From Chiloscyllium plagiosum (lineage: Eukaryota), in the NCBI RefSeq assembly GCF_004010195.1, contig NC_057749.1, positions 16,555,634 to 16,575,633 on the forward strand: 20,000 nt of DNA. The letters run 5' to 3'. This document shows, piece after piece, positions 3,226 to 18,735 of the stretch. The notes below the pieces were generated by a model. It saw only the letters and a list, made by a program, of their open reading frames with translations. It was not told the origin of the DNA and did no database searches. Each line of letters opens with the position of its first letter. Position 1 is the first letter of the stretch. A program made the translations under genes and the position numbers.

Positions 3226-3689
3226 TGTCCTTACATTCATCCCTATATCTCCAATCCCATCCAGCCTAGATCTCCCTCGCTCCTTTCTCTGTGACATTCC
3301 CCTTCCAAACTCCGTAACTCTCTCAGCATCTCCTTTTTTCACATCCTCCCTGCTGACGGTGGTCTGATTTCTTTACCACACCGCCCGAGAGGAGGCTGTG
3401 GGGGGGAGGATCTCACTCACACTCTGGCTCTCAGCTCCAGGAACAATCTTTCCCTCATCCTGAAGATACTTCTTCGTCTCTTCTCCCGGGGTCTTGTCAC
3501 CTTTCCCACTCCTGCTCCGCTGCTCCCTGCCCTCTTGGGGGCGGGGGGGGTCTTCATCCTCTCCTTCCCCTGAGGGTTTCCCTCCACTCCCTCCCGACTC
3601 CAACATCCCCATCACAGGTCGCCCTCTCCTACTCTTTCTCGGGGGGTGGGAAGTCTCCTCCCTCCCCCTGGGGGAGGGGGCGGGAGAAA

Positions 3690-4215
3690 GGTCGTTCTTA
3701 CCCTGGGGAAGCTGACTCCGCTCTGCCGCCGCTCCGGTTCGTGCTGTACGCGGTCCAGCATCAGGTAAAGCGAGAAAACGGCCACGCAGAAAATGGCGCC
3801 GCCGCACACCGTCACCTGCTTCTTCAGCTTCATCCTGCGGGTGTCCCGGCTTCCCGCACTCCCGCCGCCGCCGCCTCCACCCCGCGGGCCCGGTCTCAAC
3901 GGCCGCATACCAGCACCCAGCCTCGCAGCAGCATGGTTTCCCCCCCGCAAGCCCCAGAGGCTCCCCTACAGCTCGAGGCCAGGCCACCAGGCTGCTCCCT
4001 GTGTCACCGCGCCCGGGCTCAGGACAGACGCGGTCTCGAGGCCTGGAGACACGGACACCCCGTCACCTCAGCGACGCGACTTCTGTTGGGGCCGGCACCG
4101 AGACTGCGTACTAAGAACCCAGCCTCGCGCCCCTATCGGTTTGCAGGAGATGCTCTTTAACTGACAGGACTTGCATTTACCTAACGCCGCGCACCATCCC
4201 GGGCTATCTCGAAGG
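3690..4215. promoter_or_regulatory. CpG island / probable MAN2A2 promoter and 5'UTR
   Basis: Sharp rise in GC and CpG density over and upstream of the MAN2A2 start codon, against a CpG-depleted AT-rich background. Confidence 0.8.
3702..3833 (-). CDS. MAN2A2: Alpha-mannosidase IIx (Golgi GH38, type II membrane protein), first coding exon
   Basis: 132 nt, [44 protein letters not shown], then a GTAAG donor at 3701-3697. Nearly identical to the human MAN2A2 N-terminus as recalled ([31 protein letters not shown]), unlike MAN2A1 (MKLSRQFTVFG). Lies downstream of FES as in human. Exon 2 was not found in the window. Confidence 0.95.
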
Positions 4216-4582: not shown

Positions 4583-4811
4583 GGTCATGATTTGGAGATG
4601 CCGGTGTTGGACGGGGGTGTACAAAGTTTTTGTAAAAAATCACACAATACCAGGTTATAGTCCAACTGGTTTAATTGGAAGCACTAGCTTTCACAGCACT
4701 GCTCCTTCGTCACGTCGTTATCACACTCCTGATGTAGGAACAGCACTCCGAAAGCTAGTGCTTCCAATTAAAACTGTTGAACTATAACCTGGTGTTGTGT
4801 GATTTTTACCT
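4583..4811 (+). mobile_element. Penelope-derived fold-back element with degenerate hammerhead motifs
   Basis: Imperfect ~60-bp inverted arms 4632-4692 / 4750-4809. Hammerhead-like CTGATGTaggaacagcactccGAAAgctag at 4729-4758 and a decayed mirror copy on the minus strand. Flanked by ttggttaatgcc (4571-4582) / ttggctaatgcc (4812-4823). Confidence 0.7.
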
Positions 4812-4867
4812 TTGGCTAATGCCCATTATGTAGGATAGAGTTAATCAGTAGCTGTCCCTCAGTCTAG

Positions 4868-5230
4868 GTTTGAGCTATAGGGGGAGGCTGAGGAGTGACC
4901 TTAAGGAGTTTATAAAATCATGAGGGGCATGGATAGGGTGAATAGTCAAGGTGTTTTCTCCAGGGTAAGGGAGTCCAAAACTAGAGAGCATAGGTTTAAG
5001 GTGAGAGGGGAAAGATTTAAGAGAGACCTAAGGGCAACTTTTTCACACAGACAGGAAGTGCCAGAGACACCATTTAAAAGGCATCTGGATGGGTACATGA
5101 ATAGGAAGGGTTTAGAGGGATATTGAGCAAATGCTGGCAAATGGGATTAGATTAATTTTGAAAATCTGGTTGCCATGGACGAGTTGGATTGAAGGGTCTC
5201 TTTCCATGCTACACATCTCTATGATTCATG
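4868..5230 (+). mobile_element. CR1 LINE 3' fragment
   Basis: YKIMRGMDRVNSQGVFSRVRESKTREHRFKVRGERFKRDLR and FKRHLDGYM are typical CR1 ORF2 C-terminal motifs; ends in a ctctatgattc-type tail. Confidence 0.85.
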
Positions 5231-7454: not shown

Positions 7455-7773
7455 TAGATTAGATTAGATTAGATTACTTACAGTGTGGAAACAGGCCCTT
7501 CAGCCCAACAAGTCCACACCGACCCGCCGAAGCGCAACCCACCCATACCCCTACATTTACCCCTATTAACCTAACACTACGGGCAATTTAGCATGGCCAA
7601 TTCACCTAGCCCGCACATCTTTGTGGGAGGAAACCAGAGCACCCGGAGGAAACCCACGCAGACACGGGGAGAATGTGCAAACTCCACACAGTCAGTCGCC
7701 TGAGTCGGGAATTGAACCCGGGTCTCTGGCGCTGTGAGGCAGCAGTGCTAACCACTGTGCCACCGTGCCGCCC
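7455..7773 (-). mobile_element. HE1-type tRNA-derived V-SINE, full length
   Basis: Minus strand starts GGGCGGCACGGTGGCACAGTGGTTAGCACTG (A box) ... GGGTTCAATTCCC (B box). V-domain TGTGTGGAGTTTGCACATTCTCCCCGTGTCTGCGTGGGTTTCCTCCGGGTGCTC, and an (AATCT)n tail at 7455-7475. Confidence 0.9.
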
Positions 7774-7975
7774 ACCTGTGTTCTGATTTTGACATCAATA
7801 AGCTAAATGGAATTAAAAACAGATCTTTTATAATCTTCAGCACTTTAAAATCTAAATAGTTCAAGCAACCTAAGCACGAATGTAACAAAGCTGCCTGAAC
7901 TGGTTTGCTAGGATTGAAGGGTCTGGGGCCATATTTTGAACATCCCTGAAGGTTGCAGTTTGAACAAAGGAGATA

Positions 7976-8325
7976 CAGTAGCGACTCGACATACAAACGA
8001 CCCCGTTCACGAACAAATTGGTTTACGAACAGGATTGTACATAAAATTTTGCTTCAACATACATACAAAATTCAAGGTACGAGCGAAGGTATGAGCGCAA
8101 AAAGCCCGTGTGCGACGACGTGGTTTCATTGTTCTGCTTTCCTATGCGCTTGTTGAACGCAAAAGCTCTCAGGCCCCGCGTGATCTCATTCAGTTCATCT
8201 TTGATGCATGCGCAGTTCGTCTTTGGAGCGTGCGCTGTGAACGCTATCTGAACAATGGGAAAAATTGATTCAGTTCGCGAACTGGGTCCCAGAACGGATT
8301 AAATTAATAAATCGAGGCGCTACTG
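7976..8325. mobile_element. Tc1/mariner (Tigger-like) non-autonomous DNA transposon / MITE, 350 bp
   Basis: Terminal inverted repeats CAGTAGCGACTCGA ... TCGAGGCGCTACTG, flanked by TA (7974-7975 and 8326-8327); no transposase ORF. Confidence 0.85.
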
Positions 8326-8329
8326 TAAT

Positions 8330-9276
8330 TAATTCCAAAATAATTCAACATCAGTTAGCATGGACATTAGAATTGTTTGCAATCAGGTTTGGCAATGACA
8401 AACTTTTCCAGTTTAACAAGGAATTGAGCAATTTGAAAATTTTGAAAGAAATTTGGAATCCATTCTGTAATAGCCAATTAGAAGGAAGAGTGAACGATGG
8501 TGAGAATGAGGATATCGAGGGGATTGAAGAGTATTGCTGTAAAAATTATTCGAAATGGAGAAATGTGGAATTGCAAAAATGAATGGCTCTGCCTAGCCAG
8601 ACGGCAGGCATTCATTATTTTAAAAATGATCAAATCTCTAATAATTGGTTAAATAAGATGCATTATATGAAAACATCAAAAGTAATAAATACAATCCTCT
8701 TACAAACAAATTTGTACCCAACTAGATCATAGTTATCATACGGAACGCCCTTTAACACCAAGAATTGTAGGAGGTGCAACAATGCCATCGAGACAATCGC
8801 CCACATATCGGGCTGGTGCCTGTATGTGAAAAATATGCGCATTAAAAGACACAATAGGATTGCTGAGGAACTAATTAAATACGTTAAAACTAAAGGATGG
8901 ACCACATATATTGAACCTCGTATAAAGGACAATACAGGAAAACTCTGGATCACACATTATATTTAAGAAAGACAATCGTATTATTGTTGTGGATGTCACA
9001 ATTTGGATGGAAAACCAAGAAAATTCGCCAGAGCAGGCTTGGGAGGAGAAGGTGGAGAAATGTAAACATTTAGAGAAAGAAATCATGGATTCTATTAAAG
9101 GAACCAATATTTCTTTTTATGGATTCGTGATGGGGTCCCGAGGTAAATGGTTCAACAAGAACAGTGACCTGATGAAGGATTTCAGGATCGAAAAGTATAA
9201 GATATTTGCTCAACACATCACAAACCTGGTTATATCCCTGACCCTCGAGTTGTTAAGAATTTTTATGGATTCATAA
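8330..9276 (+). pseudogene. R2 ORF remnant: linker, CCHC zinc knuckle, PD-(D/E)xK restriction-like endonuclease
   Basis: KWRNVELQK*MALPSQTAGIHYFKNDQISNNWL...NLYPTRS*LSY...CRRCNNAIETIAHISGWC (8766-8819)...RIKRHNRI...KGWTTYIEPRIKDNTGKLWI / frameshift ~8950 / IIFKKDNRIIVVDVT...EKVEKCKHL...GFVMGSRGKW...LLRIFMDS*. In-frame stops at 8580-8582 and 8730-8732. Confidence 0.9.
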
Positions 9277-9687
9277 TGGACTCTTTTAGCTTCTCTATTT
9301 TGGACATTACTAAAACAATCGATTTAAAAATTAATTAAATAATGTTAATTTTAGGTAGAATTTTAACTTATTTTAGAATTTTAAATTTTATAATAATTTT
9401 GGTAATAAAGGTTTTTGTTTTTTAGCTCACAGTAAAGGTGGAGAGTAGTTAGGGTGAATAAAATTAAAACTGCACTTGCCAACACAACAGGTGATGAGCT
9501 AGAGAAGTAATTTGTTAGTTGAATAATCCTAGCTGAATCCTCGCTTGGTCTCTGCTTTACAGTGAATATTCCCGTTCCCTTAACATCATCTGGCCGTGGT
9601 TAGCGAGATAAGGGTGTCTTTTACGTCGACGAGTAATGAGAAAAAACTCGAAATGGACACAATCCGTTCAGATGGTGAGAGAGATAA
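8330..9687 (+). mobile_element. R2 non-LTR retrotransposon, 5'-truncated decayed copy (ORF C-terminus plus 3'UTR)
   Basis: Encodes R2 linker, zinc knuckle and RLE endonuclease motifs. ORF stop at 9274-9276, then ~410-nt 3'UTR joined directly to TAGCCAAATGC of 28S at 9688. The 5' boundary is uncertain (about 8330-8450). Confidence 0.92.
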
Positions 9688-10041
9688 TAGCCAAATGCAT
9701 CATCATCTAATTAGCGACGCGCATGAATGGATGAATGAGATTCCCACTGTCCCTACCTACTATCTAGCAAAACCGCAGCCAAGGGGACAGGCTTGGCAGA
9801 ATTAGCGGGGAGAGAAGACCCTGTTGAGCTTGACTCTAGTCTGGCACTGTGAAGAGACATGAGAGGTGGAGAATAAGTGGGAGGCTTCAGCCGCCGGTGA
9901 AATACCACTAATCGTTTTTTTCGCTTACCCGGTGAGGCGGGGAGGCAAGCCCTGAGGGGCTCTCACTTCTGGTCGGAAGCGCCCGGGCGCGACCTACTCC
10001 AAGGACAGTGGCAGGTGGGAAGTTTGACTGGGGCGGTACAC
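9688..10041 (+). pseudogene. 28S rRNA fragment (sequence immediately downstream of the R2 target site), non-functional
   Basis: TAGCCAAATGC..CATCTAATTAG.GACGCGCATGAATGGATGAA.GAGATTCCCACTGTCCCTACCTACTATCTAGC ... GAAGACCCTGTTGAGCTTGACTCTAGTCTGGCAC ... GGTGAAATACCACTA ... GAGTTTGACTGGGGCGGTACAC-like are conserved LSU rRNA blocks. Carries substitutions and an apparent ~5-nt deletion near 9910. Confidence 0.95.
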
Positions 10042-10214
10042 TCTTAAGTGGGGGCAGAGTGGGGTGAATGACTGGTATACCTTCACAGTTGAGTAGCCTT
10101 AAAGTGCAAAGTCCTATGACCAATCAGGATGAGGTAACAGATTGGGATCGTTGCCTATATCTCCCAGTCGGGAGTAGAAAAAGTGGGTTGGATGAGATTG
10201 CAGGAGGGAGGACA

Positions 10215-10325
10215 TTTAATAGGAAAGCAGAAGAATGGCATTTAGTGTGATGCTCATTTGGAGAGCCAGCCGAGACACAATAGGCTGAACACCTCCTCAG
10301 TGTTGTAACAATTCTATGATTCTAT
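10215..10325 (+). mobile_element. CR1 3' tail remnant
   Basis: ggagagccagccgagacacaataggctgaacacctcctcagtgttgtaacaattctatgattcta, a CR1-type 3' end with ATTCTRTG-like tail. Confidence 0.6.
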
Positions 10326-10574
10326 TTTGCTTGGGCCAATGGAATAAAATTTGTATGTGTAAGCAATGGGAAGAAAATTACCAAAATATTCAAAATTATT
10401 CCAAAATAACAGTAAATCCTTTTAAAAGTTATATCCAATTGCCTTCTTGTAGTAAAGACTACATGCTGGGGAACAGAAACATTGGTGGAGAGATTTCATT
10501 TGATATCATTAATAATTTCCACCCTGAGAGACACTGTCATACAGTGCTAATTGGTAACTGAATCTAAGAATTCC

Positions 10575-11174: not shown

Positions 11175-11317
11175 TCACTTCCATTTTTTCCTGAGAGTCA
11201 CAAGCTCCTGGTGAATGGTGCTGAAATTTGGGCGCTTCTTCGGATCATACTGCCAACAGCGACACATTATACCGTAAATCTCATCTGGGCAAGAATCAGG
11301 GGCACCGAGTCGATAGC
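11175..11317 (-). CDS. FES: Tyrosine-protein kinase Fes/Fps, last coding exon
   Basis: 143 nt; (G)YRLGAPDSCPDEIYGIMCRCWQYDPKKRPNFSTIHQELVTLRKKWK*; AG acceptor at 11319-11318; TGA at 11177-11175. Confidence 0.92.
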
Positions 11318-11706: not shown

Positions 11707-11949
<243 letters not shown>

Positions 11950-12989: not shown

Positions 12990-13214
<225 letters not shown>

Positions 13215-15994: not shown

Positions 15995-16250
15995 TATTCA
16001 ATAAGATCATGCTGATCTGATTACTCCACATTCCTGCCTGTCCTCATAATTCTTTCATTCCCTTAATGATCAGAAGTCTAACCACCACTGCCTTAAAAAT
16101 ATTCAAGAGCTCTGCTTCCATTGTCATTTGAGGAAGAGAATTCCAAAGATTCATGGCTCTCTGTGAAAAATACATTCTCACTATTTCTGAATAAATGGGT
16201 GTTCCCTTATTTTGAAGCAATGACCACTGGTTTCCAAATATTTGGAAATC
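15995..16250 (-). mobile_element. CR1 LINE 3' fragment
   Basis: Minus-strand ORF YFSQRAMNLWNSLPQMTMEAELLNIFKAVVVRLLIIKGMK is the CR1 C-terminal motif. Confidence 0.8.
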
Positions 16251-16289
16251 TCTCCCACAAAAAGCAATGGAGTCTGGGTCCCCCAATCT

Positions 16290-16455
16290 ATTCAAGCCTG
16301 AGTTAGAAAGATCTTTGATCTACAAATTAATCAAGGGTGACAGATGGACAGACAGGAAAGTGGGGTTACGGCTATGATCAGGTCAGCTATAATTTTATTG
16401 AAAGACAGAACATCCTCAAAGGGCCAAATGGTCTACTTCTGGTCCTATTTCTTAT
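16290..16455 (+). mobile_element. CR1 3'UTR remnant
   Basis: gagttagaaagatctttgatc...gatcaggtcagctataattttattgaa...gggccaaatggtctacttctggtcctatttcttatg. Confidence 0.6.
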
Positions 16456-16559
16456 GGCTGATGAAAGATGGATGAAAGCCATCAACACCCAACCACTCAC
16501 CTCTCCTTCCACCACTAGCTAAAATAATGCATTCAAAGGCAGAAAAATCCATTCCACCA

Positions 16560-16999: not shown

Positions 17000-18735
17000 C
17001 AGGGAGGGTGGTAAAGGAAAAGGTGGTGGTCAGGAGCAATGTTGGCTCACTGAAGACTGGAAGTGAATGTATTGTCAGTGACTATGGGGAAATGGCAGAC
17101 ATACTGAATAAATACTTTGCTTCAGTATTTACACTAGAAAAGGACAATAGTTTACTGAAAATCCTGAGGAAATTGATAATGGATTGGGAACAAAGATTGA
17201 ATAAAATTAACATTAAATAAAACATTGATAATGGAACTAAAGAGTGACAAATCCCCAGGGTCCATTTGACAGTTGTTAAAGGAACTAGGGGATCACATTG
17301 TAGACACCCTAACTATAATCTTTCAGAGTTCCCTAGATACACAAGTCACCCCTCTGGATTAGAAAATTACATATGCCACTTTTTTTTTAAGAAAGGATGT
17401 TCGAGGAAATTGAAGGAATTACAGACCAGTAAGCCTAACGTTTATGGTGGGGAAATTGTTGGAGTCTGTAACTTGAATTTTTTAATTAATTAGGATGAGC
17501 CAGCAAGGATTCACGACAGGTAGGTCATGCCCAAAAAACCTCAGTGAAGTTTTGGAAGAGATGATTAAAGTAGTAAAGGGGAATGTCTATCGATGTTGTT
17601 TATATGTACTTTCAGAAGGCATTTGATAAAGTTCCACATATGAAACTGTTAACAAAGATAGAAATCCACAGTGCTGATAGCAAATTACTGACATGGCTGA
17701 GAAGTTGGCTGTGTGGCAGACAACAAAGTAGGGAAAATGGATAGTTACTCAAATTGGCAGGATGAGACTAGTGGTGTCCCACAAGGATCTGAGTTCGGGT
17801 CTCAATTATTCACATTATTTACTAATGACTTGGATAATGGCATAGAAAATCATATATCCAAATTTGCTGATGACAGAGTTAGGCAGCATTGTAGACAGTG
17901 TAGGTGACAACATAACATTGCATGAGGATATTGATAGTATAAGTGATTGTGCAGGATTGTGGTAGATGGAGGTCAATGTAAGTAAGTGAAAGATTATTTA
18001 TTTTGGAACAACAAAGCATAGAACCTTCTATATGGTATGCAGTTAAATACAGTGGCTATCCAAGGAGACTAGTGACTTAATGTGCATTGATCCTTAAAAC
18101 GTCATGAACAGGTGCAGAAAGTAATCAAGAAAGTTAATGGAATGCTGGCCTTTATATCTAGAGGACAGGAGTACTAGGATGCAGAAGTTATGCTGCAGTT
18201 ATACAAAACCCGAGCTAGACCCCACGTCAAGTACTGAGAACAGGTTCTGGGTACCACACCTTAGGAAGGACATATTGACCTGAGAGGGAAGACAACATAG
18301 CTTTACAATAATGATACCTGGACTTCAGGGATTAGTTTATGAGGAAAGATTACACAAATTAGGCCCTTTTCAAAGTCTTCAGGACAGTAACAAAAAAAAA
18401 AGAGTAGATAAAGGTAAATTATTTCCACTGGCTGGCAATTCTAGAACTAAGGGTTATAGTCTGAGAATTAGGGCCAACCATTCAGGAGAGATGCTAAGAA
18501 GCACTTCTACACACAAAGAGTGGTAACTGTTTGGAACCCTCTGCCACAAATGATAGTGGATGCTAGATCAGTTGTTAATTTTAAATTTGAACTGGATAAA
18601 AGTTTTGTTAATCAAAAATATTAAGGGGTATGGGCCAAAAGCAGGTATCTGGAGTTAGGCCATAGATCAGCCGTGATCTCACGAATGGTAGAACAGGCTC
18701 GAGGGACTGAATGGCCTGCTCTGTTCCTATGATTT
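17000..18735 (+). mobile_element. CR1 LINE, 5'-truncated, degenerate reverse transcriptase to 3' tail
   Basis: Broken frames give EMADILNKYFASVFT, KSPG, DVVYMYFQKAFDKVPH, SGVPQGSEFGSQLFTLFTNDLD, SKFADD, YEERLHKLG and LFPLAGNSRTKGYSLRI; the 3' end is gactgaatggcctgctctgttcctatg. Confidence 0.92.

Follow-up and report, generated by a model that had tools for sequence, protein, structure and literature searches.

The window analysed here, 20 kb of Chiloscyllium plagiosum DNA (G000:C40:16555634-16575633, within a 3.56-Gb assembly), contains one dead insertion at positions 8418-10041, which consists of the last 1270 nt of an R2 retrotransposon and of the 28S ribosomal RNA (rRNA) sequence that lies downstream of the R2 site. 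The insert is decayed and without coding capacity. Its canonical R2/28S 3' junction shows that it came from a 28S gene occupied by R2 or from the transcript of such a gene. We favour, at a rough probability of 0.55, an origin in which an R2-28S co-transcript was reverse transcribed, by the R2 or a LINE enzyme, at a site outside the ribosomal DNA (rDNA).

The insert joins the 3' end of an R2 element to 28S rRNA

The insert comprises three parts, identified as follows (ORF, open reading frame; UTR, untranslated region):

8418..9276, plus strand: R2 ORF remnant, last 284 codons (linker, CCHC zinc knuckle, restriction-like endonuclease); from tblastn, solved R2 proteins and the ORF list
9277..9687, plus strand: R2 3'UTR, ending ...GAGAGAGATAA; aligns with the 3' ends of R2 copies L002-L020
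9688..10041, plus strand: 28S rRNA tail, +1..+366 after the R2 site; from Rfam LSU and alignment to the genome's own 28S

To delimit the protein remnant we used as query the ORF of a near-intact R2 on an rDNA contig of the same genome (L021), consisting of 915 + 361 codons separated by a single in-frame stop. In tblastn this ORF matched 8418-8963 (61% identity) and 8956-9273 (60% identity), corresponding to residues 78-361 of the 361-codon piece; of the protein of about 1277 residues, the window copy thus retains only the part from residue 994 onwards. The frame of the remnant is interrupted by stops at 8580-8582 and 8730-8732 and by a +1 shift near 8956-8963, and it ends at the natural stop at 9274-9276. 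A C-x2-C...H...C zinc knuckle is present, followed by the restriction-like endonuclease, and comparison by eye with the IPDLI of the rDNA copy shows that the frameshift near 8956 coincides with the position of the PD motif. The two largest pieces of the remnant matched the solved proteins 9dou (named R2Tg) and 9nl3 with E-values of 2e-11 and 2e-14, and the remnant also matched the R2 proteins 9nl2 (E 1e-8) and 8gh6/8ibw (E 8e-5), while a Pfam scan of the remnant returned no family at the cut-off.

The reverse transcriptase (RT) domain and the N-terminal zinc finger/Myb region are not in the window copy, and no RVT_1 match lies near 8418; these domains are absent because of the truncation at 8418, not because the element belongs to another family. 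Missing as well is the 5' end, which in R2 lies at the 28S site and has an HDV-like self-cleaving ribozyme. Among solved structures the proteins of the restriction-like endonuclease (RLE) type are R2 only, and the comparison of clades is restricted to R2. Arguments for R2 are the target site and the 61% identity to an R2 that occupies the canonical site in this genome. Homology to R2 has its 5' limit at 8418, and the closest copy, L002, which is 88.5% identical over 8418-9690, keeps the R2 frame further upstream. An earlier note on this stretch had placed about 300 codons of an RLE-type C-terminus here, starting at 8330. The C-terminus is indeed that of an R2 protein (284 codons), but it begins at 8418, so that the proposed start is 88 nt early; 8330 is merely the end of an insert resembling a miniature inverted-repeat transposable element (MITE).

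The 28S sequence starts at 9688 with TAGCCAAATGC, and the join GATAA/TAGCCAAATGC is the same in the rDNA copy (slashes mark junctions). Over a longer stretch the 9687/9688 junction of the window, ...GAGAGAGATAA/TAGCCAAATGC, matches the rDNA-borne ...GCAATAAC/TAGCCAAATGCC at the TTAAGG^TAGCC site. The Rfam family LSU_rRNA_eukarya covers 9833-10023 with 95 bits (197 bits in a looser run). Compared with the genome's 28S, the tail has 24 mismatches in 354 aligned bases (6.8%), 19 of which are transitions and 10 of CpG type, giving a Kimura two-parameter distance of 0.072, and two deletions of 4 nt and 8 nt. Past 10041 all 14 other loci (14/14) continue as CTCTCACACC-type 28S (CTGTCACACC), where the window reads TCTTAAGTGG.

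No match to upstream 28S or other rDNA parts was obtained across the 20-kb window, and no poly(A) was seen in the sequence at the insert. Alignment of flank versus flank revealed no target site duplication (TSD), its score being equalled by 1051 of 2000 shuffles. The exact start of 28S at 9688, its abrupt stop at 10041 and the lack of upstream 28S, other rDNA, poly(A) and TSD had all been described from the letters alone and were confirmed. The end point at 10041, suggested as one that other copies might share, is not shared by any of the 14 loci examined. We also searched the genome for the join at +354 with a 22-mer and rejected the five other matches (2-3 mismatches) as chance, since the reversed control gave eight; the four matches inspected had unrelated flanks.

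R2 and 28S sequences elsewhere in the genome

The first genome search returned 45 matches, and of 163 candidates the best 40 were scored. As the 45 matches are spread over many chromosomes, the insert is not the lone orphan that it had been taken for. R2 relatives on rDNA contigs occupy TTAAG(G)^TAGCC in 28S, with RT, zinc fingers and canonical 5' junction present. On the rDNA contig C101626, for example, 28S is followed by a 4.65-kb R2 (RVT_1, E 3e-34; match to R2Tg, E 1e-141) and by 28S again, the junctions being CTCTTAAG/TGACTACAG at the 5' end and GCAATAAC/TAGCC at the 3' end. The proposed first integration into a real rDNA unit is thus supported by the canonical 3' junction of the window copy and by relatives at the canonical site, where near-intact R2 was found as the earlier note had suggested looking for. 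These near-intact copies also mean that the fossil is not needed as evidence for the existence of an R2 lineage, the role originally assigned to it, although its own lineage is orphan-only among the scored copies.

The 28S tails of the R2 copies, given in reference coordinates, are graded in length:

L002, C10: about 0 nt
L005, C2: 3 nt
L008, C33: 4 nt
L004, C39: 51 nt
L013, unplaced contig: 263 nt
Window copy, C40: 366 nt
L016, C8: 533 nt
L015, C37: 539 nt
L040, C1: 562 nt
L017, unplaced contig: 598 nt
L009, C26: 741 nt, then a short interspersed nuclear element (SINE)
L014, C16: 840 nt
L003, C2: 942 nt

Two of these loci belong to full-length R2 copies in non-28S DNA, L042+L005 (C2:64180900-64187916) and L043+L008 (C33:42919900-42926931). 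Both have the 5' end of an rDNA copy (ATG/TGACT..) and exact 3' ends. The two junctions of L042+L005 share an imperfect repeat of 13 nt (TAGAGGGGGGAAT / TAGAAGGGCAAAT), which was equalled by 131 of 2000 shuffles. This repeat faintly resembles the 28S target (TAG..CAAAT), and both flanks of the copy are, by eye, one ORF of a long interspersed nuclear element (LINE). Searching for contiguity of the flanks of the two copies by blastn against the collected loci, we found nothing.

Some copies have structures of their own. L003 (C2:110657443-110661772) is a 5'-truncated R2 with 942 nt of 28S that lies inside a LINE RT ORF in the same orientation, with about 100 codons of the LINE missing at the site; either an insertion with target deletion or a double template switch may have produced it. 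At about +598 of 28S in L017 (C89898) a sequence beginning CTGCCAGGCCCGCCC runs into an R2-like 3' end. In L040 (C1:3796400-3798300) the CTGCCAGGCCCGCCC start follows matching 28S bases, and an R2 stub of about 57 nt occupies the canonical site; a short R2 derivative that is non-autonomous and has a second target in 28S may be involved. In L023/L019 (C99392, about 22450-22900) an R2 3' end is joined to 28S at a point 151 nt before the canonical site, which the 28S then crosses without interruption. This resembles the insertion-site shift via a 28S-derived 3'UTR that excerpts of PMC5035012 describe for R2 of ray-finned fishes.

Sequences of 28S are also scattered in other forms. At C26:15.86 Mb, C1:98.95 Mb, C2:146.3 Mb and C20:12.3 Mb there are rDNA pieces of DNA type, in which R2 has 28S before and after it or which continue into spacer repeats. 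In addition, dozens of short stray 28S pieces, derived from sequence up- or downstream of the R2 site, are spread over the chromosomes. Three chromosomal 28S pieces stop at the mature 28S 3' end. One of them, L038 (C9:87398596-87402325, minus strand), starts at -13, includes the R2 site in uninterrupted form and reaches the mature 3' end, which lies 1138 nt past the site. About 40 A-rich bases come next, and after them, in sense orientation, the 3' end of a LINE whose tail is (TTCTATG)n, so that L038 looks like a LINE/28S template-switch chimera.

The window lineage and its age

The window copy is 88.5% identical to L002 and 84% to L003, every other copy scored being at most 76% identical. The lineage formed by these three copies was found only as orphans and none of it was seen in rDNA contigs, which is a lower bound, the arrays being incompletely assembled and scores being limited to the best candidates. 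As the ancestral sequence of a 28S tail is known, the tail serves as a built-in clock, and the fossil is roughly dated by its 7% divergence from the conserved 28S. The tail of the window copy is 93.2% identical to 28S at aligned sites and that of L003 92.4%; given these divergences, the 16% difference between the two copies about fits two independent decays from one source. The three copies suggest an R2 lineage that was active about 7% divergence ago.

The same divergence bears on whether rDNA-derived reads were misjoined to the FES locus during assembly. Although rDNA and its insertions are hard to assemble, the tail has 24 mismatches in 354 bases and two deletions, and the R2 part is no more than 88.5% like any other copy scored. 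Both parts are thus old and diverged and do not represent reads from a live array. Moreover, in 17 of the 24 sequencing runs listed, 50% or more of the 31-mers sampled from 8150-10350 are present (top value 0.90), a measure of word share only and not of the junctions one by one. Runs coded as organism B have a word share of 0.76-0.79, and those coded as organism C one of 0.22-0.23. The 20 listed runs with any 31-mer of this region come from 8 studies, and no RNA run holding it is among the 24. We therefore regard an assembly artefact as highly improbable.

Reverse transcription of an R2-28S co-transcript is the favoured origin

R2 is co-transcribed with 28S; it has no terminator of its own and is part of the rRNA transcript, and R2 RNA is therefore able to carry downstream 28S sequence. 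In the origin that we favour the template would be an R2-28S RNA with its 3' end within 28S at about +366. Reverse transcription would take place at a nick or break without 28S sequence to pair with, so that the tail would be copied as well, and an early halt of synthesis would give the 5' truncation at 8418. The enzyme could be off-target R2 protein or the RT of one of the genome's abundant LINEs.

Several observations speak for this RNA route. The canonical R2/28S 3' junction is intact and 28S is present on its downstream side only, and the 5' truncation lies inside the ORF, as in dead-on-arrival copies of non-LTR (non-long-terminal-repeat) retrotransposons. Retrotransposition of R2 away from 28S occurs in this genome, as the two full-length copies with exact ends demonstrate, and the closest relative, L002, stops at the R2 3' end without any 28S. 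The graded 28S tails are anchored on the R2 3' end and not randomly cut. Finally, RNA-mediated copying of 28S itself is seen in the three pieces that reach the mature 3' end, including L038. A precedent comes from excerpts of Stage and Eickbush 2009 (PMC2718515), in which non-28S insertions of R1 carry up to 14 nt of downstream 28S and 28S-tailed transcripts are inferred as templates.

Other observations weigh against the RNA route. The insert has no TSD, no poly(A) and no abutting LINE tail, the nearest one being 181 nt off, across sequence without a match to a LINE profile. The full-length off-target copies start at the exact R2 3' end, with 0-4 nt of 28S, which means that the R2 enzyme as a rule leaves a long tail uncopied. 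Lastly, the DNA-type rDNA pieces in the genome mean that a DNA route is available. By such a route a piece of R2-occupied rDNA, from the array, an orphon or extrachromosomal DNA, would have been captured at a break, or a larger orphon would have been trimmed on both sides. The lack of TSD and poly(A) is in line with this, as are the four chromosomal loci at which 28S lies up- and downstream of R2 or runs into spacer repeats and the dozens of scattered 28S pieces, which represent sequence before as well as after the R2 site. However, DNA capture requires two unrelated breaks, one in R2 and one in 28S, whereas a 5'-truncated retrocopy is a single event; the series of tails from 0 to 942 nt, all anchored on the R2 3' end, is unlike a set of random fragments; and the 20-kb window contains no other rDNA part. 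We consider a DNA-level origin possible, though less likely. Read-through retrocopying and DNA capture, the two mechanisms originally put forward for this locus, remain the two live routes.

The downstream flank and LINE template switching

On its 3' side the insert is followed by single-copy sequence and then by a LINE fragment:

10042..10222: right flank, single-copy; self match only in the genome (181 nt)
10223..10332, plus strand (sense with the R2 piece): 5'-truncated 3' end of an abundant LINE with a TTCTATG-like tail; 39 other genomic matches

This arrangement raises the possibility of a template-switch chimera, in which a LINE RT would have started on its own RNA (10223-10332), switched, and ended on R2-28S RNA, making 8418-10332 one composite. 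The LINE 3' end lies only 181 nt downstream and in the same orientation, and with L038 the genome holds a clear example of 28S, A-rich bases and a sense LINE in succession. In L004 a LINE profile match begins where the 51-nt tail ends, and in L003, L005 and L016 the DNA after the tail is, by eye, a sense LINE ORF. LINE-1 chimeras with other RNAs and tripartite chimeras via double template jumps are in print, according to passages of 10.1101/2025.02.02.635956 and PMC2104539.

In the window, however, the parts do not abut. In nhmmer searches with LINE profiles matches were confined to 10223-10315 (E 1e-9) and 10224-10328 (E 7e-9), and 10042-10222 gave no match in max mode; this sequence is neither LINE, by nhmmer and tblastn, nor a copy of another locus. 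As for the related loci, the left flanks of L005 and L003 are also LINE by eye, so that insertion into an existing LINE fits equally well, and the sense orientation in 4 of 4 cases corresponds to p = 0.06 only. A LINE chimera thus appears improbable for the window insert. By eye, the flanks 10052-10222 and 8328-8417 had also appeared to be the C-terminus of a LINE ORF, a case in which a paralogous empty site would have been at hand. This idea was rejected because the LINE profiles match only 10223-10328, and a clean peptide from the LINE C-terminus produced no tblastn match with an E-value below 0.15.

A 20-mer of uncertain meaning follows the 28S tail

The first bases of the right flank form a separate feature:

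10042..10061, plus strand: unexplained 20-mer after the tail, TCTTAAGTGGGGGCAGAGTG; 15 of 20 bases match the 28S(-7..-1)/R2 5' junction of the rDNA copy

Matches of at least 15/20 to the 28S/R2 5' junction occur twice in the window, counting both strands, with 0.19 expected per shuffled window. The match may be chance seen after the fact. A doubtful, though more specific, explanation is that the 20-mer is a scrap of a second 28S/R2 5' junction; a head-to-tail product, made by copying an R2-28S RNA after a template jump from the 5' end of another R2 RNA, would then have integrated off target, and the second unit would mostly have been lost later. The R2 enzyme is known for end-to-end template jumping. 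In three R2 lineages of this genome the first bases pair, by eye, with a stretch about 45 nt downstream, and cleavage would therefore fall at the R2 end. Passages of PMC3774820 report that in some species the R2 RNA still carries 9-36 nt of upstream 28S after processing. We also asked whether 10049-10222 is R2 5'UTR and rejected this reading for the whole of that sequence: it was not matched by a profile built from four R2 5' ends, and global alignment scores were 1-6 with a null of about 5, compared with 76-97 among three 5' ends of other lineages.

If the reading as a second junction is true, this genome, with its graded tails, off-target copies and LINE/28S chimera, would be a natural record of the mobilisation of rRNA co-transcripts, and it would preserve, only as orphans, an R2 lineage datable by its 28S tails.

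Genomic setting of the insert

The R2/28S piece lies in the spacer between a Fes-type kinase gene and a glycoside hydrolase family 38 (GH38) mannosidase gene. The left flank and the nearest kinase exon are the following:

7974..8327: MITE-like insertion, not R2, which splits the left flank; 16-nt terminal inverted repeats
8328..8417: left flank, single-copy, not R2; self match only in the 3.56-Gb genome
11175..11336, minus strand: putative last coding exon of the Fes/Fps-type tyrosine kinase gene; stop at 11175-11177; from the ORF list, by eye

Further exons of a Fes/Fps-type kinase are located on the minus strand at 11707-11949 and 12990-13214 (Pfam PK_Tyr_Ser-Thr match). Compared with sequences from the PDB, exon 12990-13214 scores 98 bits with Fes/Fps and 58 bits with the next kinase. 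The R2/28S piece is 1.1 kb away from the stop codon of the FES-type gene and on the opposite strand to it. On the other side, Glyco_hydro_38N exons on the minus strand at C40:16549603-16551791 lie 3.8-6.0 kb before the start of the window. The location that had been given as the FES-MAN2A2 interval therefore holds as a single-copy spacer between a Fes-type kinase and a GH38 mannosidase gene, the name MAN2A2 being one that we presume from synteny.

The arms of the MITE-like insertion, 7974-7989 and 8312-8327, are 94% complementary, and a TA is read from the sequence at each side. Sequence 8328-8417 is unlike the R2 sequence found upstream in L002, the window's closest copy. Since both immediate flanks are unique, the genome has no paralogous empty site. 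The window holds further repeats (4635-5230, 16009-16464, 18415-18724), among which the LINE 3' end described above recurs several times, and a SINE-like element at 7458-7775 is common to L002, L008, L009 and L016 (86-94% identity). A weak RVT_1 match on the plus strand at 17701-17904 (E 5e-5, below the Pfam cut-off) is probably a decayed LINE unrelated to the R2 piece. At 3357-4161 there are open frames of up to 267 codons on both strands without a Pfam match, a stretch that possibly represents the mannosidase gene's CpG-rich 5' end.

Discussion

The insert shares features with several known systems. In L1 3' transduction, transcription past the end of the element carries the downstream flank along; here a downstream flank is carried as well, but without poly(A) and TSD. 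rDNA orphons are stray rRNA gene pieces outside the arrays. Like them, the insert is rDNA-derived sequence in single-copy surroundings, with gene exons on both sides, decaying as a pseudogene; it differs from them in containing the R2/28S junction and, of 28S, only the part downstream of it, which ties it to an R2 transcript or an R2-occupied unit. With the vertebrate R2 elements of known structure (9dou R2Tg, 9nl3, 9nl2) it has in common the C-terminal CCHC knuckle, the restriction-like endonuclease and the 3' junction at TTAAGG^TAGCC, whereas the window copy is truncated, broken and outside 28S. Chimeric LINE retrocopies, of the U6/L1 and tripartite types as outlined in the passages cited above, likewise have parts in the same orientation and a 5'-truncated LINE on the 3' side, and this type is present at L038. 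In the window, by contrast, the LINE tail is 181 nt away from the insert, and TSD and poly(A) are lacking. The non-28S R1 and R2 insertions of Drosophila, as far as excerpts of PMC2718515 go, are also outside rDNA and often incomplete, and some of the R1 insertions carry downstream 28S; there, however, it is R1 that does so, with at most 14 nt, compared with 354 nt (366 in reference coordinates) here and up to 942 nt in sister copies. In the open-access literature we found no report of R2 copies outside 28S with long 28S tails.

R2 is already on record for cartilaginous fishes: a figure legend in PMC5035012 names an R2 of an angel shark, and an expansion of R2 in Chondrichthyes with co-existing lineages in a shark appears in excerpts of PMC12247875. 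The insert itself is a real but ordinary fossil, one of many strays. As a dead transposon fragment it has no expected effect, and we propose no function for it. As regards annotation, most of the stray 28S/R2 matches on chromosome scaffolds here represent old pseudogenes and not arrays that were placed wrongly. For transposon specialists, the family-level pattern seen in the genome holds some interest. Its series of sister copies could reveal how either the R2 enzyme or a LINE enzyme copies R2-28S co-transcripts when acting away from rDNA, which is relevant to the off-target behaviour of R2 systems under development for gene insertion.

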